From an uncultured virus (IMG/VR IMGVR_UViG_3300037297_000328) (Duplodnaviria; Heunggongvirae; Uroviricota; Caudoviricetes), in IMG/VR virus record IMGVR_UViG_3300037297_000328: a stretch of 20,000 nucleotides of DNA; one strand, given 5' to 3'. Below the pieces are notes generated by a model. It was not told where the DNA came from, did no database searches, and saw nothing but the letters and a program-made list of their open reading frames with translations. Both the position numbers and the translations under genes were made by a program. This document shows positions 1 through 17,369 of the stretch, piece after piece (the stretch's first letter is position 1; each line of letters begins with the position of its first letter).

Positions 1-345
1 AAGTGGAAACATCGGGTTGTGCATATTGCACGAAAGTTCCCATGGTTAATAAGATTGCTTAATTTTAAATACTCTTATTGCGAAAAATGCGGGTTAACAT
101 GGAATTGGGTTGAGCCTTTTGTTGTGGAAACTGGTAAATATTTTGGCGTTTTTGCAGTATGCGAACATTGCTTTAAAAAGTCGACAATTGAACAGCTAAA
201 AGAATATTATACTTCTATTTACTTAATGCAAAAAAAGGCTATGGCTCAAATTGGCTATAATGATCCTTACTTTTCATTAAAGCATTTATTAAACTGTGTG
301 GAAGATTCTTATAATGAAATTAATAATCTAAGTTCTAATAACTAG
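1..345 (+). CDS. Hypothetical Zn-finger protein, probably 5'-truncated by the window
   Basis: The frame is open from base 1 (KWKHRV-VHIARK...). It has two CxxC pairs (CEKC, CEHC) and stops at TAG 343-345. Confidence 0.7.
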   Translation, partial: KWKHRVVHIARKFPWLIRLLNFKYSYCEKCGLTWNWVEPFVVETGKYFGVFAVCEHCFKKSTIEQLKEYYTSIYLMQKKAMAQIGYNDPYFSLKHLLNCVEDSYNEINNLSSNN

Positions 346-360
346 TTTCTAATATCTAAT
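328..360 (+). repeat. Heptamer-periodic junction repeat, copy 1 (ctaagtt-ctaataa-ctagttt-ctaatat-ctaat)
   Basis: Near-identical to 549-581. It overlaps the stop codon of the preceding ORF. Confidence 0.8.
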
Positions 361-371
361 ACAAGACAAAA

Positions 372-566
372 ATACCAAGAAGAATAAGACAAGACTTGAT
401 TTCCGAAACAGAATCAAATATTGATGTTGCGATTGCAGGCGTGGAATTACTTGGTGCCAATGAAAAATTAACCGAGGCTATAATGTTGTTATCTAAAGCC
501 AGGGAAATTGTGTCAGATTATATTGATGGTCAAATAAATGAATGTGAACTAAGTTCTAATAACTAA
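372..566 (+). pseudogene. Small helical phage-type ORF lacking a clean ATG (IPRRIRQDLISETESNIDVAIAGVELLGANEKLTEAIMLLSKAREIVSDYIDG...LSSNN)
   Basis: The frame is open 360-566 and ends TAA. The only plausible N-terminal start is TTG at 396. Upstream 'ata caa gac aaa a ata cca' looks like a decayed start plus a 1-nt slip. Not in the ORF track. Confidence 0.5.
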
Positions 567-581
567 TTTCTAAGTTCTAAT
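549..581 (+). repeat. Heptamer-periodic junction repeat, copy 2
   Basis: ctaagttctaataactaatttctaagttctaat. It gives the same C-terminus (LSSNN*) as the previous ORF. Confidence 0.8.
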
Positions 582-596
582 ATATAAATAAAATAC

Positions 597-1430
597 ATGG
601 AAAACAGGAACATAAACAACCAAACAAAGTACATAATTGCAGTGCATAATAAATTTGATAAATATGCTATTCAAACTTCAATCGAAGAGGCTAACAATTA
701 TTTAGAGCGCTTCCCCGAAAGAAAGGCAATAATTGTGTCCGGCATATATCGCAATGATGATATTGCTAAAGAAAAATACACGCAATCAATGGCCGCAAGA
801 AATAAAGGCAAACTAAAATTAATGACATTTGAAGGAACACCGCACGAAGATGTATTAAGTACAATTTTGCTTGGTTTTAAAAATGGGTTGATAATTATTC
901 ATGAAATGCAATTTAATGAAACATTTCTGGAAAAATTAATTAATTATCACGAAAAAAACATTGATGTAATTATTCATCGCAATAAAATGCTGTTCAGTAT
1001 GGCCGAAGTAGCTTACTTCAATCAACAGTCGCGTATTATTCAGCAATTTGTTGATCGCGGAGAAAATTATATTATGCCCCGCCGTATTATTGTTCGCATG
1101 CACAACGACAATGATTTTGCGATTAACAAGGAGGGACTAATACGCTACATGCAGGAGTTTGGAGAAAAAATTGGATACAAATTATTCCTTTGTCAGTTTA
1201 TTTTGCTTAAAAAAAGGCATGGATTAAGACGGGAACTGGAAAGGGTTTGTGCAGTTGAGAATGAAAAATTTGAAGATTTTATCGATCCTTATTTTTTTGA
1301 GAAAGAAACAGCAAATTACGTATATTTCGAAATGGCATCAATGGATATTATTGCAAATGCTGATATTGACTTAATAAAAGAAAGCGAAAAAGATTTAATA
1401 AGAATATTACAAGAAAACGAGGAGGTATAA
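597..1430 (+). CDS. Degenerate (Walker A-less) paralog of the adjacent packaging ATPase
   Basis: Colinear blocks shared with 1430..2362: TILLGFKNGLIIIHEM/TIADYYKNGLLILEEM, NIDVIIH/GVDVILH, VRMHNDND/LRLHKAND, NYVYFEM/YMVYCDF. No GxxxxGKT motif. Confidence 0.7.
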   Translation: MENRNINNQTKYIIAVHNKFDKYAIQTSIEEANNYLERFPERKAIIVSGIYRNDDIAKEKYTQSMAARNKGKLKLMTFEGTPHEDVLSTILLGFKNGLIIIHEMQFNETFLEKLINYHEKNIDVIIHRNKMLFSMAEVAYFNQQSRIIQQFVDRGENYIMPRRIIVRMHNDNDFAINKEGLIRYMQEFGEKIGYKLFLCQFILLKKRHGLRRELERVCAVENEKFEDFIDPYFFEKETANYVYFEMASMDIIANADIDLIKESEKDLIRILQENEEV

Positions 1431-2362
1431 TGGCATCCAGGGACGCACTGGCACAAATAGTCGTAGGCAAGCAGGGTTCTGGTAAAACTTACTCTACTAA
1501 TGAAGAGATTGCTATTTATCGAGGTAAATTTAAGAGGCCGGTACTGATCATCGATAGGAAAGGTGAATATACTAATTACAAATCAGTATATTATGACCCT
1601 GATGTAAAAGACCGCGAGAAAAGAGCTAAAGGGAATCCTAATAGCGGGCATGGGATTAAATCCATTCACTTGCCACATATTTACCGCATTGTTTGTTTCG
1701 ATAAAAACCAGCGACCAATGGATGCAAACCAGATGGTTGAATTGATTTTAACTATTGCCGACTATTATAAAAACGGTCTGCTAATTCTCGAAGAAATGAA
1801 TAGCTACATACGTCGTACTATTCCTCCGGCTTTTTATGCATTTCTTACCACATTGCGGCACAATGGCGTAGATGTAATACTCCATTTTCAGGCCAACGGC
1901 GACGCACACCCTGATATCTGGAGTCAATGCACTACATTACGTCTACACAAAGCAAATGATAGTGTAACATCAATAGTTGGTAAGCGCGGTTTTGATGCCG
2001 ACCGCTTTGAATTGGCACGTATAGCTGAACTGGCTATTTATGAAAAATACCAGAAAGGGGTAAAATTAAAAAAAGCTGCAATGCTAAAGTACGGGCATGA
2101 AGAAAATTTCCCAAAAGAGGTAAAAGAAGAAATAAACAGGCATATTTATTACATGGTTTATTGCGATTTCGATCTAAGCCAGATAAGTAATATGCACCCA
2201 GTTGATTTTAGGAAAGCATGTACAATATTTTTATACCAGGAAAAAACGCAGATAAAAGATTTGATGCAGATTGAAGATGAACATGGGCGAAAGATTTACC
2301 CAAATAAAAATGCTGCGATTCAAAAATTAGTTAGCGATAAAGAACTGGTTTACATTAATTGA
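1430..2362 (+). CDS. A32-like (FtsK-HerA superfamily) genome-packaging ATPase
   Basis: Walker A GKQGSGKT near the N-terminus, VLIIDRKGEY strand, Walker B LLILEE, and Arg-finger/sensor LRHNGVDVILHFQ. No TM segment. Start overlaps the upstream stop (TAATG). Confidence 0.85.
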   Translation: MASRDALAQIVVGKQGSGKTYSTNEEIAIYRGKFKRPVLIIDRKGEYTNYKSVYYDPDVKDREKRAKGNPNSGHGIKSIHLPHIYRIVCFDKNQRPMDANQMVELILTIADYYKNGLLILEEMNSYIRRTIPPAFYAFLTTLRHNGVDVILHFQANGDAHPDIWSQCTTLRLHKANDSVTSIVGKRGFDADRFELARIAELAIYEKYQKGVKLKKAAMLKYGHEENFPKEVKEEINRHIYYMVYCDFDLSQISNMHPVDFRKACTIFLYQEKTQIKDLMQIEDEHGRKIYPNKNAAIQKLVSDKELVYIN

Positions 2363-2373
2363 GCAAAAAAACG

Positions 2374-2381
2374 TATCTTTG
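2374..2381 (+). promoter_or_regulatory. Bacteroidota-type -7 promoter element (TAnnTTTG)
   Basis: TATCTTTG in the intergenic gap, 5 nt before ATG 2387. Confidence 0.55.
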
Positions 2382-2386
2382 TAGAA

Positions 2387-2620
2387 ATGAAAAAGAAAAA
2401 ACCATCTTTAGGATTAACAAAAAAACAGCGAAGTGCCATTGTGAAAAAGGCACGTGCAAAAAAGGACTTAGGAAAGCCTGGCAAGGATTTTAAGAAAGTG
2501 GAGACAAAAGCGTATACCTATTACCGAAAGAAAGGAAAAAGTCCGGCAACGGCCAGAAAAATAGCTAAAAAAGTGGCTGCAAGTCAGTTTTGGAAAACGC
2601 AGGCAAAAAATAAAAGATAA
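2387..2620 (+). CDS. Small, extremely Lys/Arg-rich protein; candidate DNA-condensing/core protein
   Basis: 77 aa dominated by K, R and A, with only three acidic residues. Confidence 0.65.
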   Translation: MKKKKPSLGLTKKQRSAIVKKARAKKDLGKPGKDFKKVETKAYTYYRKKGKSPATARKIAKKVAASQFWKTQAKNKR

Positions 2621-2898
2621 TGGCACAAGGAATACAAGTAAATAACAGTGGAGAAACAGATATTTTTTATATAGAAAGAAAAAAAAGAGAACTATATCAA
2701 TATCGTGAAAGACATAGTAATTCTGATATAAAAATGGTTGTTTCAACTGTTGAAAATAAGCACCTAGCAGATAAAGGGATAATAAATAGAATTAAAAAAA
2801 TACCCGTTAATGGTAAGGGACGGAATATAAGTAACCTAGGAAAGCTTATATTCCGAATGGCCCGAAAAATAATAATAGCTCTAAGAATTAGATTCTAA
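2620..2898 (+). CDS. Hypothetical basic protein
   Basis: ATG overlaps the upstream TAA. 92 aa, no recognised motif. Confidence 0.55.
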   Translation: MAQGIQVNNSGETDIFYIERKKRELYQYRERHSNSDIKMVVSTVENKHLADKGIINRIKKIPVNGKGRNISNLGKLIFRMARKIIIALRIRF

Positions 2899-2951
2899 TT
2901 TCAGGGTTTTAATTTCTAAAAAAATACCGGAATACAGGAAAGTTTTAATAA

Positions 2952-2991
2952 AGTATTGAGATATTTGTCTAATAGCTTATATCTCAATACT
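2952..2991. promoter_or_regulatory. 13-bp perfect inverted repeat upstream of the protease gene
   Basis: agtattgagatat (2952-2964) and atatctcaatact (2979-2991), with a 14-nt loop, ending 16 nt before ATG 3008. Confidence 0.55.
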
Positions 2992-3007
2992 AAATACTTA
3001 TTTAAAT

Positions 3008-3859
3008 ATGGAAGAATTTAATAAGATTAAACAAAACACTGGAACATTCCTGTTGAATATGAAAAAATCTCCGTTGGATGACAGGGATTTTAAAGCTGAA
3101 ACTATCTATCCGGATCAGGTAGAGCTCCCAAAGAAACTTGACCTAAGACCTTATCTATACCCTGTGGTTAATCAGGGTGTTCAGGGTACGTGTAGTGCAC
3201 AAGTAGCAGCCTGTATGAAAGAATACCAGGAATATAAGTTACAGAAATTAACGGGCATTGAAGGTGATATGTCGCCTCAGTTTGTATACAATTTGCGCGA
3301 AGAGCCAGATTACGAAGGCATGACGCCGCGCGAAACAATGAAAATTTTGCAACAATATGGTATTTGCCGTGAAGCCATATATCCTTATAATACTATTGAA
3401 TACCCAATGTATATTTCGCAGGATGCCTATGCCGATGCACTTACTTTTCGTATTCAAAATTATGCACAAATCAATACAATTGATGCACTGAAAAAAGCAT
3501 TAGTAAAGGATGGTGTATGTTATATTTGTTTTCCAGTGTATAACTCAGGTATGCAAATGTGGAAGGCCGCACAGGGAGATATAGATATGGGTGGCCATGC
3601 GATGGCTGTAGTAGGCTATGATGACGACAAAGAACATTTTATCATTCGCAACTCATGGGGCGAAGATTGGGGTGATAATGGCTATACCTATTATCCGTAT
3701 GAAGATTTTGGGGCGCATTGGGAAATATGGGGTAGTGTGGACAAAGAGAGCGCATGGCCGGAATTTGATGTGAGTGAATATAAACAGCCTATTAAGGCAA
3801 GTCATTTACTTTGGATAGGTGCGGCAATATTGTTAATATATGTTTATGCAACTAAGTAA
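3008..3859 (+). CDS. Papain-like (peptidase C1) cysteine protease with C-terminal membrane anchor
   Basis: LPKKLDLR, NQGVQGTC (oxyanion Q and catalytic C), GGHAMAVVGYDD (H), IIRNSWGEDWGDNGY (N). C-terminal hydrophobic LLWIGAAILLIYVYATK. Confidence 0.92.
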   Translation: MEEFNKIKQNTGTFLLNMKKSPLDDRDFKAETIYPDQVELPKKLDLRPYLYPVVNQGVQGTCSAQVAACMKEYQEYKLQKLTGIEGDMSPQFVYNLREEPDYEGMTPRETMKILQQYGICREAIYPYNTIEYPMYISQDAYADALTFRIQNYAQINTIDALKKALVKDGVCYICFPVYNSGMQMWKAAQGDIDMGGHAMAVVGYDDDKEHFIIRNSWGEDWGDNGYTYYPYEDFGAHWEIWGSVDKESAWPEFDVSEYKQPIKASHLLWIGAAILLIYVYATK

Positions 3860-3874
3860 AGAGCAAAACAAATC

Positions 3875-4063
3875 GTGTTGGCAGTTATTTATTTTATAAT
3901 TGCCCTGGTTTATTCTTTATTTTTGGCATACGTGGCTGATAAAATAAAGCATTACGAGTCAACTGAATTCGTTATTATCACATTTGCCATCCTTGTTTCA
4001 GCTTTTTTTATTATATTTGCATTAGTCGCGATTGGAAAATGTTTTTTTAGAATAGATGATTAA
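3875..4063 (+). CDS. Small two-TM membrane protein
   Basis: Two hydrophobic helices separated by KIKHYES. GTG start. Confidence 0.55.
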   Translation: MLAVIYFIIALVYSLFLAYVADKIKHYESTEFVIITFAILVSAFFIIFALVAIGKCFFRIDD

Positions 4064-4098
4064 AGAAATTATAAATTATAGATTATAAATTAAAAATC

Positions 4099-4329
4099 AT
4101 GAAAAAAGTAAAGAAAACTACAAAATACTTAGTATCAAGAACTGTTTTTTCAGACTATGAATTAAAACTAATTTCCGATAAAGGAATTAAACTTAAAAAA
4201 AGAAACAATAGATATTATGTTACGGTGAAACCTAAATTTACGGGCAATTTTAATTCTGTAGACGTTTTAGTTGTAGGTTATCCTACAATGACGAAAACTC
4301 TAAATACTGGATACTTAAAGTCTTACTAA
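4099..4329 (+). CDS. Hypothetical basic protein
   Basis: ATG after an A-rich leader. 76 aa. Confidence 0.6.
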   Translation: MKKVKKTTKYLVSRTVFSDYELKLISDKGIKLKKRNNRYYVTVKPKFTGNFNSVDVLVVGYPTMTKTLNTGYLKSY

Positions 4330-4340
4330 TTTCTAAATAC

Positions 4341-4606
4341 ATGCCACTATTCGTTTCGAAAACTGCGGTACCATTGATAATACCGCACTAGGTTTTTACT
4401 GGTGCCGTAAAAGCATTCGTTTTAAAAGCAAACAACTGGATGGAAAGGCATTGTGTTCTGAATGTGTTCCACCTGAATTTTACGATGGAAGCAAGAACGA
4501 TGGAGGAAAATGGCATAACAAGTTTCCCAAAGAAAAATTTGATATAAAAAAGCACGATACAAACGATTATATTAATATTAATCAAAAAGGCGAGATAATA
4601 CATTGA
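4341..4606 (+). pseudogene. Frameshifted Zn-finger phage-type protein (MPLFV[C]ENCGTIDNTALGFYW...ALCSECVP...GKWHNKFPKE)
   Basis: ATG 4341 reads MPLFV. Restoring one base at 4356-4357 (tc to tgc) gives CENC and a continuous frame to TGA 4604-4606 with a second CxxC (CSEC). Confidence 0.7.
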
Positions 4607-4789
4607 AAAATACCAGGACATATCAGAACTTAATCAGTCGTCTTGGAATTGTTTATTGGAGCAATTCTACATGGGAAATAGTTGATATCAATGTAAAAGA
4701 AGAATAATTTATATTAGGAGTATTATATAAGCACATTGAGATAAGGTCAATGTTTCATATTTTACAGTCAAATAATTAAATAGGAATAC

Positions 4790-5014
4790 ATGGTATTAAA
4801 AACTAAATACAACATTGGCGATAAGATATGGTTTGTATCGCACAATATGGTAAATTCAGGACGTATTGATGCGGTAAGTGCTTCAGTAATTAAGAGGATA
4901 TCAGGGGTTTCATCTCGTGTATTTTATCGTATAGAAGGCACGCTTGTTGAAATAGATGAAAAATATGCATTTGAATCGAAAGAGGATTTGAAAAACGCCT
5001 TATTTTCTGAATAA
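4790..5014 (+). CDS. Small hypothetical phage protein (TKYNIGDKIWF; SH3/KOW-like pattern)
   Basis: 74 aa with a beta-rich pattern. Translationally coupled to the next gene. Confidence 0.65.
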   Translation: MVLKTKYNIGDKIWFVSHNMVNSGRIDAVSASVIKRISGVSSRVFYRIEGTLVEIDEKYAFESKEDLKNALFSE

Positions 5015-7576: not shown

Positions 7577-7613
7577 TAATCCCTGACATTTTTTGTCAGG
7601 GATTATTGTTTTT
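7577..7613 (+). terminator. Intrinsic terminator
   Basis: 12-bp perfect stem taatccctgaca/tgtcagggatta, followed by ttgttttt. Confidence 0.75.
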
Positions 7614-7691: not shown

Positions 7692-7799
7692 ATGGAAGAT
7701 TTGAATTGGAAATATGTCGGTATTACTGCTTTAGTTGCACTGGGCGTTGTTATTATGTATGACCGTGTATTGAAGGATTATATTCCAGGCGGTAAGTAG
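7692..7799 (+). CDS. 35-aa single-TM protein directly upstream of the candidate capsid gene
   Basis: MEDLNWKYVGITALVALGVVIMYDRVLKDYIPGGK*. A-rich leader. Not in the ORF track. Confidence 0.7.
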   Translation: MEDLNWKYVGITALVALGVVIMYDRVLKDYIPGGK

Positions 7800-7837: not shown

Positions 7838-8428
7838 ATGGATTATAAACAAAGAATTGCCATGTATCATAATAAGGCAAACGGTGCGTACAATAACGCA
7901 AACGGTGGATTAGTCAGGGGGGCGCAAGCTCTTAATCCTGTCGATAGGACGTTGAGTGTTACACTTACTCCTATTTCAACTACTATTTCTGGTGCTGCTC
8001 GTATTTTTGGTGCTTTTGTCTCTCCTGATGAGACTTATAATACTGCCAATAACATGACAGTCGCTATATCTGAAAGTTCTCACATCCAGGTGAAAAAAGC
8101 TTCTGAAGCCAACCCGTTTAGGGTTAAAGGTGTTTTATACACCGTATCGAATGCTCTTCAGTTAGCTCAGCCTATTGTGATCACAAAGGCCAGCATAGCT
8201 GGTAGTTCTGAGATTGCCACTTGGCAGCCTCAAAATTACACTGCACCAACCAATTACAACGCTTTACAGATTAAAACATCTGCATTGCAGGCTGTGATTG
8301 ATGGTTACACCAGATTCGATATAAATTTTCTTGCGGGGTATAATGCGTCAATGATATTGACCATAAACGATAAGGTGGATCAGAGTTCACTATTATCTAA
8401 TAAGGTGCCTATCAAATCGGCAGAATAA
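7838..8428 (+). CDS. Candidate major capsid protein (single jelly-roll size, beta-rich)
   Basis: 196 aa, soluble, rich in A/S/T/N, with alternating beta-strand patterns. Heads the structural block and is followed by a strong terminator. Homologous to the termini of 12929..14641. Confidence 0.6.
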   Translation: MDYKQRIAMYHNKANGAYNNANGGLVRGAQALNPVDRTLSVTLTPISTTISGAARIFGAFVSPDETYNTANNMTVAISESSHIQVKKASEANPFRVKGVLYTVSNALQLAQPIVITKASIAGSSEIATWQPQNYTAPTNYNALQIKTSALQAVIDGYTRFDINFLAGYNASMILTINDKVDQSSLLSNKVPIKSAE

Positions 8429-8503: not shown

Positions 8504-8893
8504 ATGGATGATGAAAAAATACTTTGGACTGAATATATAGCAAGAAATAATCCTGATGCATTAAACTACTTGTTGGAGCAATATGGCTATTTACGTGCAT
8601 ACAGTCTGGAAGAAAGGTTGACCGCAATAGATACCTTGCAGCAAGAATATGGACACGAAGCAACAATCAATCTATTGCGCATCCATCCCGATTATGAGAT
8701 GATAGTTGAAGACAATGAACAACTTAACCCGCCAAAAGAAATAATAAAAGAGGTTGAAGTTCAGCAACCTCAAGTACAGGTAAGTGATCCTGTAAAAGTA
8801 AGTGTTGATAATGGATTTCATAATACATTAAAGGATGTATTACTGATTATTGGTGCTATTTGGCTCGTAAAAATAATAATATCAAAAGATTAG
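8504..8893 (+). CDS. Putative virion membrane protein (helical N-domain, C-terminal TM)
   Basis: C-terminal VLLIIGAIWLVKIII. Confidence 0.75.
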   Translation: MDDEKILWTEYIARNNPDALNYLLEQYGYLRAYSLEERLTAIDTLQQEYGHEATINLLRIHPDYEMIVEDNEQLNPPKEIIKEVEVQQPQVQVSDPVKVSVDNGFHNTLKDVLLIIGAIWLVKIIISKD

Positions 8894-9366
8894 TGAAAGT
8901 AAATAATAAAATAATACAGCGAGCAGTTGCTCAGTCAATAGTAAGGGATACGCCCGACTTAATAAAGTTGGTGAAAAAATATAAGCCTGTTGATGATAAT
9001 ATAAGTTTGCTCGATTTATTATTTGATGTTCAATATTTGCTCGAAAATGATAGAAAATTTGCAGCAGAATACACAAATTTTCTTTTACAGAAAAAAAGAC
9101 TTATCAATTATAATAGTGCAACAGGTTTGCTTGCCGGGGTTACTAATTTAATAGGCTCTGTTGTAAATTCAAGCACCCAAAAAAAAGAGCAACAATTAGA
9201 GTATTCGAAGCTTAGTTCTCAGAATACTCAGCAATTAATGCAATTTATGATGCAGGAGGAGCAAGCGCAGCTTGAAAAGGAGAAACAAAAAACAAATATT
9301 ATATATATAGCAATAGGTTCATTCGTATTGCTGACAGGAATTGTAATTTTTGCTAAAAAAATGTAA
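8893..9366 (+). CDS. Putative virion membrane protein (YNSATG motif, Gln-rich coil, C-terminal TM)
   Basis: GTG 8893 overlaps the upstream TAG. TM IIYIAIGSFVLLTGIVIFA followed by KK. Confidence 0.75.
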   Translation: MKVNNKIIQRAVAQSIVRDTPDLIKLVKKYKPVDDNISLLDLLFDVQYLLENDRKFAAEYTNFLLQKKRLINYNSATGLLAGVTNLIGSVVNSSTQKKEQQLEYSKLSSQNTQQLMQFMMQEEQAQLEKEKQKTNIIYIAIGSFVLLTGIVIFAKKM

Positions 9367-9368
9367 AA

Positions 9369-9626
9369 ATGTGTTGTAATAATGCAAATGGAGACATATT
9401 AAGCGGTATTGGCGATTTATTTATCTCTGATGAACAAAAAAAATTAAATGAATCGTACTTGCAGGATGCTGAATTGGAAAGGCAAAAGACAGAAGCCATG
9501 ATAGAATATCTTAGTAAGCGAAAGGCTTTGGCCGGTTCGCCAAGTGCCGGGATGGATCAGCAGACATTAATTGTTCTTGGAGGTGTTGGCGTATTAGCCG
9601 TATTTGTTATAATAATGATGACATAA
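9369..9626 (+). CDS. Small C-terminally anchored protein (NNANGD motif)
   Basis: TM LIVLGGVGVLAVFVIIMM. Confidence 0.75.
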   Translation: MCCNNANGDILSGIGDLFISDEQKKLNESYLQDAELERQKTEAMIEYLSKRKALAGSPSAGMDQQTLIVLGGVGVLAVFVIIMMT

Positions 9627-9637
9627 ATAAGAATACT

Positions 9638-10219
9638 ATGAAAGGTGATGTTTTTTCAGCAACAAGCTATTATATGCCAGGCAATCAATGGAATTTTGCA
9701 GAAGGAGATATTTTCTCGGCAATAGGAGATATAATGGAGCCGTGCGAACTTGATCTGCCTTATCCTGACTCACGTTTGCAAATGCTGCGGGATACTGTTG
9801 AATTAAGGCGTGAAACGTGGGCGCAGGCGAAAGCTGCAAGGGATATTGCGTACAAGGATTGGGCCGATTGTAAGCGAAAACTATTTTGCAATGCAGGACC
9901 AAAAAATTCAACATTGAATGCCCGCGAAGGCGAAGAAGAAGCTGCGCGCGTTGCGCTTGAGTCTGCCGAGAAAAACCTTTCGCAGGCTGTGGCTGCTAAT
10001 GAGGATGCCGAGGATGATTATCGTTTTTGTGTCGATCAGTACGCGAGGATCATGAGCCAGCAATCAAAAATTGAGAGTGAAGAGCAAAAACTGGATATTG
10101 AAGAACAAAAAGTCTCAACAGTAAAACTTGAAACCAGTAAGGATTATGCCAAATATGGCCTTATCGGACTGGGTGTTGCGGGATTATTTGTATTTGGTTA
10201 TTTAATTTTTAAAAAATAA
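9638..10219 (+). CDS. Coiled-coil protein with C-terminal TM (KGDVFSAT and FAEGD motifs)
   Basis: A/E-rich heptads. TM YGLIGLGVAGLFVFGYLIF followed by KK. Confidence 0.8.
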   Translation: MKGDVFSATSYYMPGNQWNFAEGDIFSAIGDIMEPCELDLPYPDSRLQMLRDTVELRRETWAQAKAARDIAYKDWADCKRKLFCNAGPKNSTLNAREGEEEAARVALESAEKNLSQAVAANEDAEDDYRFCVDQYARIMSQQSKIESEEQKLDIEEQKVSTVKLETSKDYAKYGLIGLGVAGLFVFGYLIFKK

Positions 10220-10230
10220 AAGCTAAAAAA

Positions 10231-10395
10231 ATGGCAAAGAAAAAATCATTAAAAGTGTATAGAGATTACACTAAGACGCATAAAAACCAAAAGGCTGCCA
10301 AAAGTCATGCCGCAAGAATACGAAAGCGTGGAGGAATGGTATCTGTAGAAAAAACTTCTGCGGGATACAGGGTAAGGTCATCATATAAAAAATAG
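10231..10395 (+). CDS. Small highly basic protein
   Basis: MAKKKSLKVYRDYTKTHKNQKAAKSHAARIRKRGGMVSVEKTSAGYRVRSSYKK*, 54 aa. Fills the gap between neighbours. Not in the ORF track. Confidence 0.7.
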   Translation: MAKKKSLKVYRDYTKTHKNQKAAKSHAARIRKRGGMVSVEKTSAGYRVRSSYKK

Positions 10396-10400
10396 AAGTC

Positions 10401-10640
10401 ATGGGAATGATGTATGTTGAGGATCCTAATAAATACTTTAATATTCCTTATATAGAGTATTTACAAAGTACTGTAGGCGATACCGGTGAGCAATTGCTTG
10501 AAGAAAAAGAGACAGAAATTGCACAGCGCAATGTCGAGGTGGGCGCTTCGAATATAGGCAAAACGCCGTTTATTATACTTGGTCTGGCAGTAATAGGATT
10601 GGTTACGATTGTGATTTTAAAAAAGAAAAAAATAATTTGA
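10401..10640 (+). CDS. Small C-terminally anchored membrane protein
   Basis: TM FIILGLAVIGLVTIVIL followed by KKKK. Confidence 0.75.
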   Translation: MGMMYVEDPNKYFNIPYIEYLQSTVGDTGEQLLEEKETEIAQRNVEVGASNIGKTPFIILGLAVIGLVTIVILKKKKII

Positions 10641-10641
10641 G

Positions 10642-11358
10642 ATGAAATCAAGTAGAAAAATAGGAATATTCATTTTTGGGTTAGGCATAGCTGGCATAGC
10701 GGTTGCAACTTATTTTTTATTAAAAAAAGAAAAAAAAGCTAAAGTTGCGATACCTGTTCAGGATAGTGATATGCTATCCGGGGAAAAAGAGAATATTTCC
10801 GAAAGCTCTATTGATAACACCCAAACTTCAACAGATACTAAGCCTGTAGAAGTTAGACATATGACTATGTATGATATTCCTCGTCCAACTTGGTATACGC
10901 AGGAAATGGAGAAGAAATTCAGAAATAGTTATCAGGGTTACATGAGTGGCGGCGATGCCATGAAGCAAAAATACAAAGACTGGATTGCTAAGTGGCCTGG
11001 CGAAGCCTTTAGAGTAGATACTTTTGACGATTATTGTATTGAAAGTGCATTGCAGGATATTCATGCTGCATTTAGTCTTAATTTTCTGCAACTATCTGAA
11101 TTAAGAAGGTTCTATGGCGTAGGCCGCGACCGCTTGTTGCCTAAAGACCCCGAACAACCTAAGCCTGAGTGGCTGAATAAAAATGATATGGAATACCATA
11201 TGTGGTGGTATTTTAACTATTACTACAATGAACAAAACTACGGTGGAATAAAAGAGTCGTTTTATAAAGGATTGGATCAGATGGCTCACGACAATGGGAT
11301 AAATATGTCTGATATTGAAGACGCAAAACAATATTACAGTACTTCACAGGTAATTTAA
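10642..11358 (+). CDS. N-terminally anchored membrane protein of unknown function
   Basis: TM IGIFIFGLGIAGIAVATYFLL followed by KKEKK. Aromatic-rich C-domain with a possible internal duplication (PRPTWYTQEME / PKPEWLNKNDME). Confidence 0.75.
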   Translation: MKSSRKIGIFIFGLGIAGIAVATYFLLKKEKKAKVAIPVQDSDMLSGEKENISESSIDNTQTSTDTKPVEVRHMTMYDIPRPTWYTQEMEKKFRNSYQGYMSGGDAMKQKYKDWIAKWPGEAFRVDTFDDYCIESALQDIHAAFSLNFLQLSELRRFYGVGRDRLLPKDPEQPKPEWLNKNDMEYHMWWYFNYYYNEQNYGGIKESFYKGLDQMAHDNGINMSDIEDAKQYYSTSQVI

Positions 11359-11360
11359 GC

Positions 11361-11630
11361 GTGATGAAAAAAAGAACAAAATACGGATTATTTATAATAG
11401 CTGTCTTCGCGATTGGTGTTTACTTTATAGCCAGAAAAAGGCGGGTGAAAATGCAGACAGTAGCGCCTGTAAAGATTAAAGAAGATAGTGAGGACGAATT
11501 AATAGAAATAGAAGAAAGACATCCTATTGATTTTTTGCCGCCTGAAGATATTATAAAGGATATGCCTCTTGGTGATAATACAGAGGAAAGGCCTTCTATT
11601 GATTTATTTCTGCCTGATGAAATTAATTAA
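11361..11630 (+). CDS. Small N-anchored membrane protein with an acidic, Pro-rich tail
   Basis: TM YGLFIIAVFAIGVYFIA followed by RKRR. Confidence 0.7.
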   Translation: MMKKRTKYGLFIIAVFAIGVYFIARKRRVKMQTVAPVKIKEDSEDELIEIEERHPIDFLPPEDIIKDMPLGDNTEERPSIDLFLPDEIN

Positions 11631-11695
11631 AAAAGAGACAATAATTAAAATAGAAGAGATATACTTTTTGAAGAATCATATAAATAAATATTATA

Positions 11696-12187
11696 ATGAA
11701 AAAAAAGGCAATGAACGCCAAAGGCGATGTGTTTAACGCCAAAGGCGATGTGTTTAACGCCAAAGGCGATGTGTTTAACGCCAAAGGCGATGTGTTTAAC
11801 GCTACCAAAATAACACCTTCTTTCTATCATAAGGCAAATCCATTGTTAGGAAAAACACAGGCTGAAATTGATGTAATTTATGCGTCAAAACCTTACGATG
11901 CCGATTATTATGATTGGCTGGATAACTATTATGAGCCTGAAACTGCAACGCAGGACAAGAATAGGTTTTATACAACTATTTCCGACATCCTTGGACTAAC
12001 GGACAAGGCAGTGGATATCAAAAATAAATTTGAGACCGGTACTACAGTTAATGAAGGACCTGTATCAATGGATATGCAATTAGGTGGTGAAGAAAGGAAA
12101 GGTAAAAATACCATCTGGTATGTGCTTGGAGGAATGGTTGTCGTTCTTGTTGTTGTTGGTGTAGTTGCATCGCGTAAAAAGAAATAA
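11696..12187 (+). CDS. C-terminally anchored protein with N-terminal (NAKGDVF)x4 repeat
   Basis: TM IWYVLGGMVVVLVVVGVVA followed by SRKKK. Confidence 0.8.
   Translation: MKKKAMNAKGDVFNAKGDVFNAKGDVFNAKGDVFNATKITPSFYHKANPLLGKTQAEIDVIYASKPYDADYYDWLDNYYEPETATQDKNRFYTTISDILGLTDKAVDIKNKFETGTTVNEGPVSMDMQLGGEERKGKNTIWYVLGGMVVVLVVVGVVASRKKK
11714..11802 (+). repeat. Perfect 21-bp tandem repeat x4 plus a partial copy (aacgccaaaggcgatgtgttt)
   Basis: Units start at 11714, 11735, 11756 and 11777. In frame, no spacers. Confidence 0.95.
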
Positions 12188-12915
12188 TGCGATTTTTTGT
12201 TATTACAAATAATAAAAAAAAAGTTATTGAGCTTGACATACTTACCAAAGGCAACAAGATAGGTGTAATTGGTCATGATGTTGATAAGCCTAATACAGAA
12301 TATTTTAACCGGATGGTGGTGAAAGACGGAACTTATACGTTTAATCTTCCACAATCTCCGAAAGTACTAAAAGTTATCGTTCTTGAAGTTAATGAAGGAG
12401 ACACGGATGAATCAGATAAATATGAAATCACTGGTTTTAGATATGCTGATTTGCCTAAGCAAGCACTAATTACTGACCAGTATACATCCGAATTTATCAA
12501 GTTTGCTCAGGAGTTTTCGGCAATGGCAGGTTATCTGCCACCTAATGATTATTACAGCGATAATCGTAATTTTATGATACGGTTATTACCAGAAATCAGG
12601 GAAGATCCAAAAACTCCATCGAGAATACACACCGAAACAGGTGTGATTGAAGTGTCTAAGAAATGGTTTGATGGCATGACGGTGCCTGGCAGGATGGCTA
12701 TTTTGCAGCACGAATTTGCACATAATAATTTGAACAATAGCTACAAGAATAATAATGAAACAGAAAAAGAAGCAGATGAAAACGCTCTACAAATATATTT
12801 GGCATTGGGTTATCCAAAAGTGGAATGGATGTATGCATGGACGCACATTTTCGAGGATCACGAGTCTCATTTTGATAGGTTGGATAATAGTAATGCCATG
12901 TTGCAAGGACTGTAA
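12187..12915 (+). CDS. Zincin (HExxH) metalloprotease-like protein, M48-like motif spacing
   Basis: RMAILQHEFAH followed by ETEKEADENALQIYLALGYP. Beta-rich N-terminal domain. Confidence 0.75.
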   Translation: MRFFVITNNKKKVIELDILTKGNKIGVIGHDVDKPNTEYFNRMVVKDGTYTFNLPQSPKVLKVIVLEVNEGDTDESDKYEITGFRYADLPKQALITDQYTSEFIKFAQEFSAMAGYLPPNDYYSDNRNFMIRLLPEIREDPKTPSRIHTETGVIEVSKKWFDGMTVPGRMAILQHEFAHNNLNNSYKNNNETEKEADENALQIYLALGYPKVEWMYAWTHIFEDHESHFDRLDNSNAMLQGL

Positions 12916-12928
12916 TTATGATATACTT

Positions 12929-14641
12929 ATGAAGGATTGTGGATTAATAAATCTGACATTTAATAATCCTACTAGCGAAAGCCAGTTGGTTAAAATTCTT
13001 GATGTGCTTAATCCTGATGGCGGTGCAACGACATATACTAGTGCCGGAAAAATATTTAATACTACAGAGGGCTCTGGAAACGGATCACAATTACCTACAG
13101 TCAATTTGCTTAAAGATTATTACTATGATAATACGAATAATATTCTTTATGTAGCTACTTCTTCAGGTATATGGGTATATGATATTAATACTGATACAGG
13201 AAGTATAATTAATACTTCTACAGGTGTCACCGGAGATAATTTACCGAATAACGATATTGTTGCAATAGCAAAAGACATCACAAATAATGTATTATACGCC
13301 GGATCACAAATTTCACCAGGCGTGATAGTGCTATGGAAGTATGACATGGATGCAGGGTCTGGATTAATCTATAATGCTACAGGAGGAGTAAGTGGAGGCG
13401 ATAACCTGACTTCGAATACATTACGTGGCATTACATTGAATGGTGACGATACTTTAGTATACGTGTCTGGTCCTACATTTATCTGGTCATTGACGATAAG
13501 TACAAATGTTGGTTCTGACATATCTCCTGCTACCGGCGATCCTGTTCCTTCTGGTCTTGGAAATAACGGAAAAATCTACTACGATTCACAAAATAATTTT
13601 TTGTGGGTTGGACTGCTCGAGTCCGGTTTATACCGATACGATATTTCACTTTCAGATGGCAAATTATATACAACAGTTACAGGTGTTGGAAGTGGGGAAC
13701 AATTGCCCTCAGATGCAAACTACAGGCCAACACAAAAGAATAATATAATATACGTTCCGACAGGCCGGGGTATTTGGGTGTATGACATAGGCACAGATAC
13801 AGGAAGCATTATAGATGATAGTGCTTCTGTAAATGGAGACCCGCTCCCCTCTCCAAGCACAAGCATTGTCAAGTCTGTATTTTATGATGCCGAAAATGAT
13901 AAGTTATGGGCGGGCATAAGAAACACTAAATATCAAATATGGTCTTACGATTTTGCGACCAATACAGGTGCAATTATTGATTCTGCTGACAGTGGCGATG
14001 TATTGCCTTCCCTTCCTGCCAGCGTTGGCATAGTCCTTTACGCAGATGGTTCGTTGTATAATATAATAAGAGAAGGTGGAGGTATTTGGAAATATACCGT
14101 AAGTAGTGTAAGCGCCATTATTATCACGGGTAATGATGGGAACTCAATATCTGATTATAGCGAAATTGTAAATTCTGTAAAAACAAACCCACTAGAAATA
14201 AACCGTATTGTATTTAAGAGTAATAATGCAGCTCAAATTGCTAATATTTTAACCGCAAAATTACGCACGATTACAGGATATGAAGAACAATATACCATTA
14301 ATTTTTCAGATTATGTAGATCCTCTATTGCCTTATCATACCGTACATATTGATTTACCTGAGCCAATATTAATTGATATTAATAATTTCATGCAGATGTC
14401 AATTAATGCAAATACGTACGTGAATTTTATTTTTGAATTTTGCCAGGTTAATTATAATGCAATGCTGGATAATGATTGGATTAATAAAGGTTTTATTGGA
14501 CCGCCTATAAGTGGAGGGTTTGGAGACGAAGGAATTGTGCCAATACAAGCCTCAATAGTTTCATCTAAAAAGTGCGGTTGGCTTTGTTGGATTATTATTA
14601 TTGCTGGTGGTTATCTACTATATAAATATTATAAAAAATAA
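12929..14641 (+). CDS. Candidate spike/vertex protein: capsid-like domain with an inserted 7-blade beta-propeller and C-terminal TM
   Basis: True start is probably ATG 12929 (MKDCGLINLTF). Seven repeats of about 50 aa (G-D/E-x-LP...D..NN.LW/Y.G...GIW.YD). The C-domain aligns with 7838..8428. TM WLCWIIIIAGGYLLY followed by KYYKK. Confidence 0.75.
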   Translation: MKDCGLINLTFNNPTSESQLVKILDVLNPDGGATTYTSAGKIFNTTEGSGNGSQLPTVNLLKDYYYDNTNNILYVATSSGIWVYDINTDTGSIINTSTGVTGDNLPNNDIVAIAKDITNNVLYAGSQISPGVIVLWKYDMDAGSGLIYNATGGVSGGDNLTSNTLRGITLNGDDTLVYVSGPTFIWSLTISTNVGSDISPATGDPVPSGLGNNGKIYYDSQNNFLWVGLLESGLYRYDISLSDGKLYTTVTGVGSGEQLPSDANYRPTQKNNIIYVPTGRGIWVYDIGTDTGSIIDDSASVNGDPLPSPSTSIVKSVFYDAENDKLWAGIRNTKYQIWSYDFATNTGAIIDSADSGDVLPSLPASVGIVLYADGSLYNIIREGGGIWKYTVSSVSAIIITGNDGNSISDYSEIVNSVKTNPLEINRIVFKSNNAAQIANILTAKLRTITGYEEQYTINFSDYVDPLLPYHTVHIDLPEPILIDINNFMQMSINANTYVNFIFEFCQVNYNAMLDNDWINKGFIGPPISGGFGDEGIVPIQASIVSSKKCGWLCWIIIIAGGYLLYKYYKK

Positions 14642-14644
14642 AAA

Positions 14645-15349
14645 ATGAAAGTAAACAGAAATCTCACAAAAGGCTTAATATTAGGTGCCGCAATAACTGG
14701 CCTTATTTTGTACATGCGAATGCGTGAAAAAAATAAAGCGCTTGAGGAAAGTTATAATGAACAGTTAAATTTACTACAACAAGAAGATATGACCGGTTCT
14801 GAAACTGCTAATAAAAACGAAGAGTTTATTGAGCTTGGAGATGAATGTATATTGATTGGAGATTTAAAAGCTACATTTAATTCATGGTTAGGCAATCAGC
14901 GCATGGACACAAATGACTTATATGACGCTGTAACACGTGATATTTTTAAAAAGGTAATGGAAAATACTACACACATTATGCAGGAGGATGATAGTCTACG
15001 CAAAATGATGATATATGACATTGTAAAAACCAATGCAAATATTGTAGATGCTGATTTGCCTCCATATCCGCTAAAATATGAATATACGCAAGGTATGGTG
15101 GCATTGGGCGATAAAGGCGGAAGTGTTGCCGACCTGCAAAAATTAATAAATATGCTGTATAAGTACTATTACCCTGTGACGGAAAAACAAATATCTGTAA
15201 ATAGCACTTACGATAAAATAACTGCGGCTGCGGCTGTAAAATTATTTGCCGGAACTTCGGCATTAATTGACGAGGATAAAGCGGCTGTAAGCAAAGAATT
15301 TGTGGCCAATATGACCACAATGATTAACAATTTAAAAGTAATTAACTAA
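14645..15349 (+). CDS. N-anchored protein with peptidoglycan-binding (PG_binding_1-like) domain(s)
   Basis: TM LILGAAITGLILYM. LGDKGGSVADLQKLIN...VNSTYDKITAAA, with a degenerate earlier copy LGDECILIGDLKATFN...TNDLYDAVT. Confidence 0.6.
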   Translation: MKVNRNLTKGLILGAAITGLILYMRMREKNKALEESYNEQLNLLQQEDMTGSETANKNEEFIELGDECILIGDLKATFNSWLGNQRMDTNDLYDAVTRDIFKKVMENTTHIMQEDDSLRKMMIYDIVKTNANIVDADLPPYPLKYEYTQGMVALGDKGGSVADLQKLINMLYKYYYPVTEKQISVNSTYDKITAAAAVKLFAGTSALIDEDKAAVSKEFVANMTTMINNLKVIN

Positions 15350-15361
15350 AAAAGTAGAAAA

Positions 15362-15604
15362 ATGAGAGTAAATCCGAAAAAAGACGTTATGAGGTCTGCA
15401 ACTGGCGAAACAGTACCTGTTCCAACAACAAATACTGTTGTTAGTGAAAAAAAATTCTCTTTATCGAATACAACTGATAAAATGGGAATCACTACTGCAG
15501 GTTCAATCGCAAAAGGTTTTATCTGGGGCTTGGTAATTGGCGCCGGAACTCTACTTGCCATTGGCATGTGGAAAGATAAAATAAATATAAGCTACAACAA
15601 GTAG
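15362..15604 (+). CDS. Small membrane protein (RSATGE motif, C-proximal TM)
   Basis: TM FIWGLVIGAGTLLAIGMW. Confidence 0.7.
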   Translation: MRVNPKKDVMRSATGETVPVPTTNTVVSEKKFSLSNTTDKMGITTAGSIAKGFIWGLVIGAGTLLAIGMWKDKINISYNK

Positions 15605-15674: not shown

Positions 15675-17369
15675 ATGAATGATATTTTGGACAATATTAA
15701 TCCACATGTGCTAGAATACCAAAGCGCGACTGGCAGAATAGCAGAAATTCTAATTATAGAAACTGCTCCAAATGTTTTTTCCGCTCCCGTAGAATCAACG
15801 TTAGGAGACTGGGCTAATGAAGAAGGCTTTGACAAAGCTGTTATAACATGGAGACACAAATATGCTGCAGATGGAAACGGATGGGTTAAATACGTTTCGG
15901 GAAATTGGGTAGATACAATACTTACAATTCCGGCAGAGAAGTTTCCTATAATAATTGAAACGTTTTATCAGCTAAGGGATGCTTATTTGTCTCAAATATC
16001 ATTGATTACTCAAAATGTAAGTGGATCGTTAAATCCTTCTTCCGGGTATTTTATTGATAGTTTGCTGAATGCTATTGTTGCAAAAAAACCGGCAAATATA
16101 CAATACAATATTACTGTTACTGATATGCCTGGTGACAATTTAAATTTTGTTGTCCCGGCAATGGAAAATAAAAATGCATTTGCCTATTTTAGTGAAGCAT
16201 ACGAAGCTTATATGGCATCATATGTATATCCTACAGAAACATTTAACCTGAATTTCACAGGCAGTTCATATGAAAATGATGTGTATACGATTAAATCAGG
16301 ATACAACAGGAATCAAACATTAATTATCAATGTTTCAAACCTATTGCCTGATGGTAGTGTTTTAAGTTTTCAAATACCTCCTTTTGATGCACCTAGTTAT
16401 AATGCATACTTGCAGGCGGCATACGAAGATTTTATGTCTTCATATGTATATCCTACAGAAACATTTAATTTGGTGTATGGAAGTTCTAATTACGATAACA
16501 ATGTTAACGTAATTATGAACAACTATAATCGAAATCAGTCGCTTATTATTAATGTCGAAGGCGTTATCCCGGAAAGTCAGCAAGTGTTAACATTTGAAAT
16601 ACCTCCTTATCAATCACCAAATTACGATCAGTATTTTCAGGCGGCATACGATGAAGCTATGCAAAATTATGAATTTCCAAAATTATACATCAATATTAAC
16701 GGTGCCGCATCAACATATAGTGCCGAGGTTGACAAATTAATTGATAAGTATGGCGACAGAAATGGGGCTATTGAGATAACTGTGGAAGGAGTATTGCCTG
16801 ATGGTAGTGTGTTAACATTCACCATACCTGCTTTGGATATGGCAAATTATGATGAATATTTTCAATTAGCGTATGATGCATGGATGAGCGGTTATGATGA
16901 TGGTTCAAGTGAAGTTACTACCGGTGATGATTCAGGTAGTCCGCTCAGCGAGGAAACAATAAATGAAATTACCACTACAGCCGAAGAGATTATATCAAGT
17001 GGTGACGATGTTGTTATTTCAGGAGAGGATAAGTTAAGCGAAATAGTAGGCGATGAATTGGTTGGTACATTAAGTAGCGGCATACTTGGCGGTGGCGGCG
17101 GAGGAGGTTTTATGACCACCGATGAAGAAGGAAATATCGTAACTGCCGATGGCGGTTTTGTTGCTGTGCCAAAGGGACTAAGAATAACAGGATATATTTA
17201 TCCTTACTTATTCTTGTTTATTACACTTGCGGGCGGGGCAATCGGCTTTTTTGTCGCAAAAAGATACAAGCAGCAAACACCTGCTATGTTAGCATTAATA
17301 GCAGCCGGGTTAATGGGCGGATCGGCTGTAGGAATGAAGGTAAAACCGCCTGTAAAGGTGCCAAAATAA
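15675..17369 (+). CDS. Large repeat protein: 4-5 tandem ~74-aa alpha/beta domains, acidic/Gly linker, two C-terminal TMs
   Basis: Repeats YVYPTETFNL...YNRNQ.LIINV...P...VL.F.IPP...Y..Y.QAAY...M. Identical 29-nt DNA at 16218 and 16440. GGGGGGG linker. Confidence 0.8.
   Translation: MNDILDNINPHVLEYQSATGRIAEILIIETAPNVFSAPVESTLGDWANEEGFDKAVITWRHKYAADGNGWVKYVSGNWVDTILTIPAEKFPIIIETFYQLRDAYLSQISLITQNVSGSLNPSSGYFIDSLLNAIVAKKPANIQYNITVTDMPGDNLNFVVPAMENKNAFAYFSEAYEAYMASYVYPTETFNLNFTGSSYENDVYTIKSGYNRNQTLIINVSNLLPDGSVLSFQIPPFDAPSYNAYLQAAYEDFMSSYVYPTETFNLVYGSSNYDNNVNVIMNNYNRNQSLIINVEGVIPESQQVLTFEIPPYQSPNYDQYFQAAYDEAMQNYEFPKLYININGAASTYSAEVDKLIDKYGDRNGAIEITVEGVLPDGSVLTFTIPALDMANYDEYFQLAYDAWMSGYDDGSSEVTTGDDSGSPLSEETINEITTTAEEIISSGDDVVISGEDKLSEIVGDELVGTLSSGILGGGGGGGFMTTDEEGNIVTADGGFVAVPKGLRITGYIYPYLFLFITLAGGAIGFFVAKRYKQQTPAMLALIAAGLMGGSAVGMKVKPPVKVPK

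Follow-up and report, generated by a model that had tools for sequence, protein, structure and literature searches.

A paralogue of a viral jelly-roll protein with an exchangeable insert and a C-terminal hydrophobic helix

The 570-residue protein and its jelly-roll paralogue

The gene studied here lies at 12929..14641 on the + strand of a 20,000-nucleotide stretch of DNA from an uncultured virus (IMG/VR record IMGVR_UViG_3300037297_000328), the whole of which was analysed and is called the window below. Its reading frame opens with an ATG at 12929 and closes with a stop codon at 14641, thereby encoding a protein of 570 residues. A longer frame opening at 12755 runs into the upstream gene, the start at 12929 is backed by the N-termini of homologues, which begin at the equivalent position, and an identical 570-residue product is present as a database record. 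Using an AlphaFold2 model made with 10 family sequences (mean predicted local distance difference test score (pLDDT) 78.9, predicted template modelling score 0.63), we divided the gene as follows, with the paralogue discussed below given in the last line.

12929..14641, + strand: whole gene, stop included; it encodes the 570-residue jelly-roll paralogue, which has a propeller inserted and an anchor at its C-terminus.
12929..13027, + strand: residues 1–33, two beta-strands (4–13 and 19–23; pLDDT 72–75 in the strands), read as the first two strands of a jelly roll.
13028..14110, + strand: residues 34–394, seven-bladed beta-propeller with 28 strands in the model.
14114..14464, + strand: residues 396–512 (the C domain), a helix plus six strands, homologous to about residues 81–176 of the 196-residue protein and read as the rest of the jelly roll.
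14465..14572, + strand: residues 513–548, a linker of variable length, probably disordered (pLDDT below 50 for 514–550; variable alignment columns).
14573..14638, + strand: residues 549–570, a hydrophobic helix and then a basic tail, resembling a tail anchor (helix 552–569 in the model).
7838..8428, + strand: 196-residue jelly-roll protein, paralogue of the above and candidate major capsid protein (MCP), with a 15-sequence family.

The first-pass annotation, made from the letters of the DNA, had placed the gene at 12929..14641 and had proposed seven repeats and a C-terminal transmembrane helix, all of which agreed with what we found. Seven G[DES]x[LVM][PT][STN] motifs, spaced 46–55 residues apart, fall within 13028..14110, where the model has seven four-stranded blades. 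The C-terminal tail has a 17-residue mean Kyte–Doolittle value of 1.80, as compared with 0.39 for the N-terminal 40 residues, and the protein has the tail-anchored pattern of a lone hydrophobic helix at the extreme C-terminus without any N-terminal signal sequence. A similar hydrophobic tail was found in 22 of the 30 family members examined.

The product of 7838..8428 was the only protein of the window that matched the C domain. A direct BLASTP comparison of residues 406–465 with residues 78–137 of the 196-residue protein gave 14 identities over 60 positions (expect value (E) 0.001 for this single comparison). Aligning the two family alignments with hhalign (10 versus 15 sequences) gave 93.1 % with E 3.2e-7 over 95 columns, pairing residues 408–504 with 81–176, and the C domain alone against the family of the 196-residue protein gave 95.8 % with E 7.4e-9. 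We also searched all six-frame open reading frames (ORFs) of the window and of two related metagenome loci, L001 and L002, with hidden Markov models (HMMs). The C-domain HMM matched all three MCP-type ORFs (E 2.7e-8 to 3.9e-6), while the reverse search with the HMM of the 196-residue family matched both ORFs of the 570-residue type (E 1.5e-4 and 2.3e-3); no further ORF of these three sequences fell below E 0.05 in either search, and the window holds no third copy of the barrel. A search of 1.84 billion representative proteins with a profile built from two C-domain sequences gave 25 matches at E ≤ 1e-3, among them P0046, a 197-residue member of the 196-residue protein's own family (E 7.4e-4).

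At the level of sequence, these comparisons show that the 570-residue protein is a paralogue of the 196-residue jelly-roll protein, as the first-pass annotation had suggested. The ungapped match to 7838..8428 on which that suggestion was based (then counted as 13 identities in 58) is real, and at the profile level it is clearly above chance; its proposed continuation through the segment ILID to NFIF was likewise borne out by the profile alignment. Within one genome, kinship between a plain and an elaborated jelly-roll protein seldom survives in the sequence, and such kinship is relevant to the evolution of vertex or tower proteins from capsid proteins.

The insert is an exchangeable cassette

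The 25 library matches could be sorted by what they carry ahead of the C domain. Eleven were 518–570 residues long and like the 570-residue protein, and four carried a Fib_succ_major domain. Another two had other inserts (P0044, for which no family was found, and P0045, with weak propeller-like matches), and two had no insert (P0043, 162 residues, and P0042, 232 residues); a third insert-less protein, P0047 (169 residues), came from another search. The remaining matches were four short or incomplete forms, the protein of the 196-residue family already mentioned, and one spurious repeat protein, P0036 (788 residues, matched in 10 stretches), which was rejected at an i-E value of 3.1 with the C-domain HMM. 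The Fib_succ_major family (PF09603) was matched above its cutoff in all four such relatives, with E 1.6e-20 to 7e-27. This domain, also found in proteins of Bacteroidota and Fibrobacter (PF09603 / TIGR02145), stands at the place of the propeller; it is absent from the 570-residue protein itself and thus bears only on the idea of a cassette.

Ahead of the insert, a conserved motif, [LI]xLxLxN..T/S......[LI]F, was found in 25 family members whatever the type of insert; in P0044 and P0045 it was placed by eye, as the HMM did not detect it there. The distance from this motif to the C domain was 351–383 residues in 17 proteins, corresponding to a propeller-sized segment, 221–233 residues in three proteins with a Fib_succ_major domain (the fourth lacking its N-terminus), and 19–22 residues in the three insert-less proteins, which are 162–232 residues long. 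These counts omit P0029, P0032, P0035 and P0041, which look N-terminally incomplete, and P0040, which is without the motif. The comparison shows that the insert is an exchangeable cassette at one loop of the barrel, occupied by a propeller, by a lectin-like Fib_succ_major domain, by other segments or by some 20 residues. The first-pass annotation had suggested looking for different inserts at the same position in homologues, and these were indeed found. Since the motif and the C domain co-occur whatever lies between them, the propeller is an insertion into a domain and not a neighbouring domain, and the pattern of spacing indicates that the N-terminal strands belong with the C domain and not with the propeller.

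Database labels of these proteins were of little help. One source labels the cluster of Fib_succ_major-type relatives 'TIGR02145 family', P0047 was deposited as 'MAG: hypothetical protein [Parachlamydiales bacterium]' and P0046 was automatically named 'Ca2+-binding RTX toxin-like protein'; the latter two labels are probably uninformative, owing to binning or automatic annotation. In the ESM Atlas, neither the 196-residue protein nor the insert-less P0043 had usable neighbours, with Atlas models that were poor (pLDDT 0.32 and 0.43, respectively).

With regard to the N-terminal strands, the first-pass annotation had noted a resemblance between INLTFNN..VKILD of the 570-residue protein and LSVTLTP..ARIFG of the 196-residue protein. 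This resemblance is not significant by sequence: hhalign against the 196-residue family gave E 0.23 when 10 sequences were used and E 0.13 when 25 were, and an HMM of the N-terminal segment matched none of the MCP-type ORFs in the window, L001 or L002. With 25 sequences the sole local match of this segment was xxLFx against ARIFG, in the register first proposed, and a global alignment of the insert-less relatives with the 196-residue family put the N-terminal strands in the same register, at low confidence. As a whole, the insert-less relatives aligned with that family at 93.3 % and E 2.6e-7.

The order of secondary structure elements is the same in the AlphaFold2 models of both proteins. In the 196-residue protein, strands 38–47 and 52–58 precede a loop (59–79), which is followed by helix 80–91, strand 94–103, helix 106–109 and strands 113–118, 124–129, 144–154, 158–164 and 169–177. 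In the 570-residue protein, two strands precede the insert, and the C domain then has helix 410–419, strand 422–431, helix 434–438 and strands 440–446, 452–458, 471–482, 486–492 and 496–506. When residues 1–33 and 396–512 were folded as two separate chains, the outcome gave weak support: the pair scored 0.58 (0.57, 0.60 and 0.58 in the individual runs) against 0.03 for the best of three controls, with a contact agreement of at least 91 % and a pLDDT of at least 71 for the partner. Of 157 solved complexes, 116 reach the mark used for this comparison, as do 2 of 215 mismatched pairs, counts that are approximate here because our own alignment was used as input; scores of 0.60 or lower include just 18 of the 157 solved complexes and both of the passing mismatches. 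The best reading of these results is that the barrel is discontinuous, with strands 1 and 2 formed by residues 1–33 and the remainder by residues 396–512. That the propeller splits a jelly-roll domain, as first proposed, is supported by the co-occurrence of motif and C domain, by the insert-less relatives and by the matching order of elements.

It could be argued that the two beta-rich domains are alike by chance or convergence, with the N-terminal strands being part of the propeller or free-standing. In favour of such an explanation, the pairwise identity is just 23 % over 60 residues and the N-terminal similarity lacks significance. Against this stand the profile E values of 3e-7 to 7e-9, the reciprocal HMM matches, the library-wide match to a protein of the 196-residue family and the retention of the N-terminal motif in propeller-free relatives, and we consider a chance likeness most improbable.

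As for the propeller itself, the best structural matches found with VIA-align were 4a2l_A (Z 29.2, root-mean-square deviation 3.3, 303 residues aligned at 18 % identity, covering 37–393 of the model) and 3v9f_A (Z 28.1), the two having 303–306 residues aligned at 17–18 % identity. They represent BT4663 and BT3049, periplasmic sensor domains of Bacteroides hybrid two-component systems, and were followed by seven-bladed WD40 proteins at 6–14 % identity; the Foldseek matches in the PDB were also propellers. These searches with the whole model (Foldseek PDB, VIA-align and BFVD) were filled with propellers, so that the barrel (1–33 and 396–512) was barely probed by them. In the model, strand 34–43 forms the outer strand of the last blade and thereby completes it, which brings the two ends of the insert side by side.

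The Pfam family Reg_prop (PF07494) scored 16.5 bits on the 570-residue protein, below its gathering cutoff of 20.4 (E 0.0095), and was matched at E ≤ 0.1 in 5 of 10 relatives, at best with E 3e-6. No other Pfam or NCBIfam domain was found in the protein, and specifically no kinase, receiver or DNA-binding module. The Bacteroides sensors thus share with it a seven-bladed propeller and are its closest structural matches, whereas the 570-residue protein has a single propeller, a Reg_prop score below cutoff and no kinase or regulator domain, with its propeller lying inside a viral barrel. According to the titles of the structure entries, the sensors bind glycans in the periplasm. Judged by the structural and Reg_prop likeness, the propeller would fit capture from a host of the Bacteroidota type, in line with the host origin that the first-pass annotation had proposed.

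The 196-residue protein and the genomic surroundings

The family of the 196-residue protein comprises 15 sequences that are 55–76 % identical to it. Its model, a two-sheet sandwich with an N-terminal helix, is poor (pLDDT 60.4). Compared with 48,161 chains using VIA-align, it gave Z 5.5–7.8 to many jelly rolls, none reaching 8. The viral chains in this range were from PR772, phiCjT23, HHIV-2, FLiP, SPV1, satellite viruses and geminiviruses, and the same search returned non-viral sandwiches, including an arabinofuranosidase (Z 7.8) and Ena pilins (Z 7.4 and 6.8). Matches in BFVD were weak (E of about 1e-4, TM-scores 0.2–0.5) and included capsid proteins of CRESS and plant viruses. A sequence search of the PDB gave nothing better than E 0.015 for this protein, and NCBIfam has no family for either paralogue. 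With a jelly-roll-like model and high conservation, major capsid protein is a reasonable, if provisional, label for it.

Several observations concern the 196-residue protein and its gene. The motif NA.G[DGE] is enriched in + strand ORFs, with seven occurrences in the window (shuffle mean 0.27, maximum 2) and six in L002 (mean 0.2, maximum 3), at 7895, 9381 and 11714–11777 of the window and at 12338–12452 of L002. It lies near the N-termini of the 196-residue protein, where N20 and G23 are invariant in the family, and of an 85-residue membrane protein, and it occurs as four tandem 'NAKGDVF' copies in the product of 11696–12187. The motif might serve as a signal for processing or assembly, for which the papain-family protease encoded at 3008–3859 would be a candidate enzyme. 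Upstream of the gene, at 7582–7605, lies an 8-bp hairpin without mismatches (CCCTGACA/TGTCAGGG), which with the T-run behind it resembles a terminator, and a 35-codon ORF with a hydrophobic core (7693–7799) lies between this hairpin and the gene.

The window is dense in genes, and all confident genes are on the + strand. Upstream lie genes for a P-loop ATPase, with weak matches to Zot (E 3e-4), AAA_10 and phrog_2666 (E 1.6e-13) and nothing useful among PDB sequences, and for the papain-family protease already mentioned (3008–3859, E 4e-18). Viruses with vertical single-barrel MCPs (Helvetiavirae type) are marked by two neighbouring MCP genes and an FtsK/HerA-type packaging ATPase; the 20 kb of the window have this ATPase, one plain barrel gene and its paralogue 4.5 kb downstream. 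Downstream are CHAP and PG_binding lysis genes. Most of the proteins encoded in the stretch 8504–15604 have a hydrophobic helix and a basic tail at the C-terminus, and the following encode small proteins of this kind, with a hydrophobic helix followed by lysines resembling a tail anchor, all having counterparts in L002.

8504–8893, + strand: small tail-anchor-like protein.
8860–9366, + strand: small tail-anchor-like protein.
9369–9626, + strand: small tail-anchor-like protein.
9638–10219, + strand: small tail-anchor-like protein.
10401–10640, + strand: small tail-anchor-like protein.
11696–12187, + strand: small tail-anchor-like protein.
15362–15604, + strand: small tail-anchor-like protein.

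Relatives with genomic context came from two metagenome loci only, L001 and L002, the latter being the informative one. L002 comes from a 46.9-kb contig and is collinear with the window over 15 gene pairs at 30–59 % identity. The 570-residue protein is 34 % identical between the two, as compared with 50 % for the 196-residue candidate and 42–49 % for three flanking genes, and this faster divergence relative to its neighbours fits a protein that interacts with the host. Contigs bearing family members reach 72.8, 70.8 and 63.5 kb, and searches of GenBank phages, of IMG/VR and of 185,579 species genomes (GTDB) found no relative. The surrounding element was likewise without relatives in GenBank phages, IMG/VR or PHROGs and may mark a group of viruses overlooked by current virus detection. 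The 21 ORFs scanned gave no match to a capsid, portal or tail family of tailed phages, and a scan of the window for tRNA genes found none.

Three further observations were made on the neighbouring genes. Positions 1–5000, with the ATPase and the protease, have no BLASTP counterpart in L002 1–4250 whereas the next 13 kb are collinear; this comparison suggests that such elements exchange their replication or packaging side. A 564-residue protein at 15675–17369, with internal repeats of about 85 residues and two C-terminal hydrophobic segments, is 59 % identical over its last 71 residues to the syntenic 567-residue protein of L002 (16851–18554) and otherwise unrelated to it, which makes it another membrane-anchored protein whose outer part is replaceable. 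Directly upstream of the 570-residue gene, 12187–12915 encodes a 242-residue protein with an HEFAH motif of the HExxH type, which is 49 % identical in L002 and for which no Pfam, PHROG or NCBIfam family was found at a meaningful E.

These surroundings bear on where the two paralogues would act. One explanation is that the 570-residue protein is a second shell protein in the facets, one paralogue being plain and the other bearing a propeller tower that decorates the whole capsid, as in viruses with two single-barrel capsid proteins; in agreement with this, one morphogenesis cluster encodes both single-barrel paralogues. We find this explanation rather implausible, however. Only one plain barrel gene lies in the window and its paralogue is found 4.5 kb downstream, so the genes are not adjacent. 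Furthermore, the 570-residue paralogue has diverged more quickly than the plain one (34 % versus 50 %), its insert is swapped or absent among relatives, most members have a membrane anchor, and crowding would be expected if every second shell subunit bore a propeller of some 360 residues.

Another explanation, which we regard as unlikely though less so, is that neither protein belongs to a shell. The 570-residue protein would then be tail-anchored in the cytoplasmic membrane of the host, with its propeller in the cytoplasm serving assembly, takeover or exclusion, and the capsid gene would lie elsewhere. A protein with a C-terminal anchor and no N-terminal signal peptide is indeed predicted to have its large domain in the cytoplasm, many non-viral sandwiches appear among the jelly-roll matches, the insert sits at the terminus-proximal end of the barrel, and 20 kb of at least 72.8 kb were examined. 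On the other side, 15 gene pairs of the cluster are collinear with another contig, and small membrane proteins surround a highly conserved 196-residue protein, as in the morphogenesis modules of membrane-containing phages. No structural family of tailed phages was found in the scanned ORFs, as described above, and an exchange of inserts of the carbohydrate-binding type (Fib_succ_major) would be hard to explain in the cytoplasm.

Possible role and comparison with known systems

We instead lean, with somewhat better than even confidence, towards the 570-residue protein being a duplicated capsid-type jelly roll that serves as a membrane-anchored host-recognition protein, probably at the vertex, with an exchangeable ligand-binding cassette. 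The source would be an undescribed tailless phage, probably with an internal membrane, in which the gene would have arisen by duplication of the small jelly-roll gene. The propeller would follow the second strand, in what is by its position the C–D connection, just before the helix preceding strand D, and because the ends of the insert lie side by side, a whole domain can be plugged into this loop. In PRD1-type assembly the shell forms on the cytoplasmic face of a host-derived vesicle membrane. The lack of a signal peptide together with the C-terminal anchor implies that the large part of the 570-residue protein should remain on that face of the membrane. As a copy of the shell fold, the barrel could take up a position within or beside the shell, the simplest being at a vertex as a penton-like unit. 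The insert would there offer an exchangeable surface for binding a host surface structure, and the 36-residue flexible linker with the C-terminal helix would tether the protein to the viral membrane. In this proposal the location in the virion, the five-fold position, the binding of a receptor and the assignment of the membrane to the virion are all inferred.

A number of points count against this proposal. The major-capsid step hangs on a model of pLDDT 60.4 with Z 5.5–7.8, scores that can reflect no more than a shared arrangement, and the window is part of a contig of at least 72.8 kb, so that another capsid gene may lie outside it. The N-terminal strands lack significant sequence similarity to the 196-residue protein, and the two-chain fold of 1–33 with 396–512 is a weak pass. 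The most conserved stretch of the 196-residue family, residues 59–82, is the loop equivalent to the insert site, and such conservation would be unusual for an exposed loop. Moreover, 8 of the 30 family members lack the hydrophobic tail, and the anchor is thus dispensable for the family. Finally, by textbook jelly-roll topology, both termini and the C–D connection are at one end of the barrel. In the HCIV-1 penton protein VP9 the N-terminal helix lies at the membrane (PMC6414509). If the barrel stood here as in VP9, the propeller would by analogy point inward and not outward; either the barrel is oriented differently in the 570-residue protein or the insert is not a simple outward spike.

More tentatively, and with distinctly less confidence than for the vertex proposal as such, the 570-residue protein might be an all-in-one vertex protein, combining penton, receptor-binding module and membrane tether. 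It would then belong to an unrecognised group of large, membrane-containing tailless phages (on contigs of 47–73 kb) with a shell of the 196-residue single jelly-roll protein, probably infecting Bacteroidota, whose host range is re-targeted by swapping loop domains. If this were true, the sequence homology that still links shell and vertex protein would directly attest to an origin of vertex proteins from duplicated capsid genes. As little is known about how tailless membrane-containing phages bind their receptors, and the proteins involved are difficult to annotate, a split barrel with a variable insert would also provide a recognisable signature for finding such proteins and predicting what they bind.

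Among the known systems, the adenovirus penton base is a jelly roll whose distal domain is built from insertions in the D–E and F–G loops. As in our reading of the 570-residue protein, a loop insertion there builds a large distal domain that engages the receptor; the likeness is one of analogy only, since the loop (here C–D), the inserted fold and the host domain all differ and the penton base has no membrane anchor. In the PRD1 vertex, with P31, P5, P2 and P16, the barrel, the membrane helix and the receptor-binding part are separate polypeptides; in PM2 P1 they are domains in series.

Vertices of the HCIV-1/HHIV-2 type offer a further comparison. In HCIV-1, the single-pass membrane protein VP13 lies beneath the penton VP9, with the spikes being separate proteins, and the penton is called a 'universal adaptor' (PMC6414509). 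These vertices share with our reading of the 570-residue protein a single jelly-roll subunit beside a jelly-roll shell protein, a membrane helix beneath it, and a distal host-recognition part that varies between related viruses. They differ in having as separate polypeptides what the 570-residue protein would combine in one chain, namely barrel, helix and binding module, the last placed inside a loop of the barrel.

A sequence search of the PDB revealed no similarity of the 570-residue protein to any solved chain, and in the full-text literature outside subscription journals we found no description of this family or of a jelly roll with a propeller or Fib_succ_major insert. The virus lineage around the gene may be an unrecognised one. 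The 570-residue protein would work like a penton-plus-spike unit, yet it stands outside the families compared here because no sequence relation to any solved chain was found. A domain-in-loop cassette used as a specificity switch in this manner would be unlike the end-to-end modular fibres of tailed phages.

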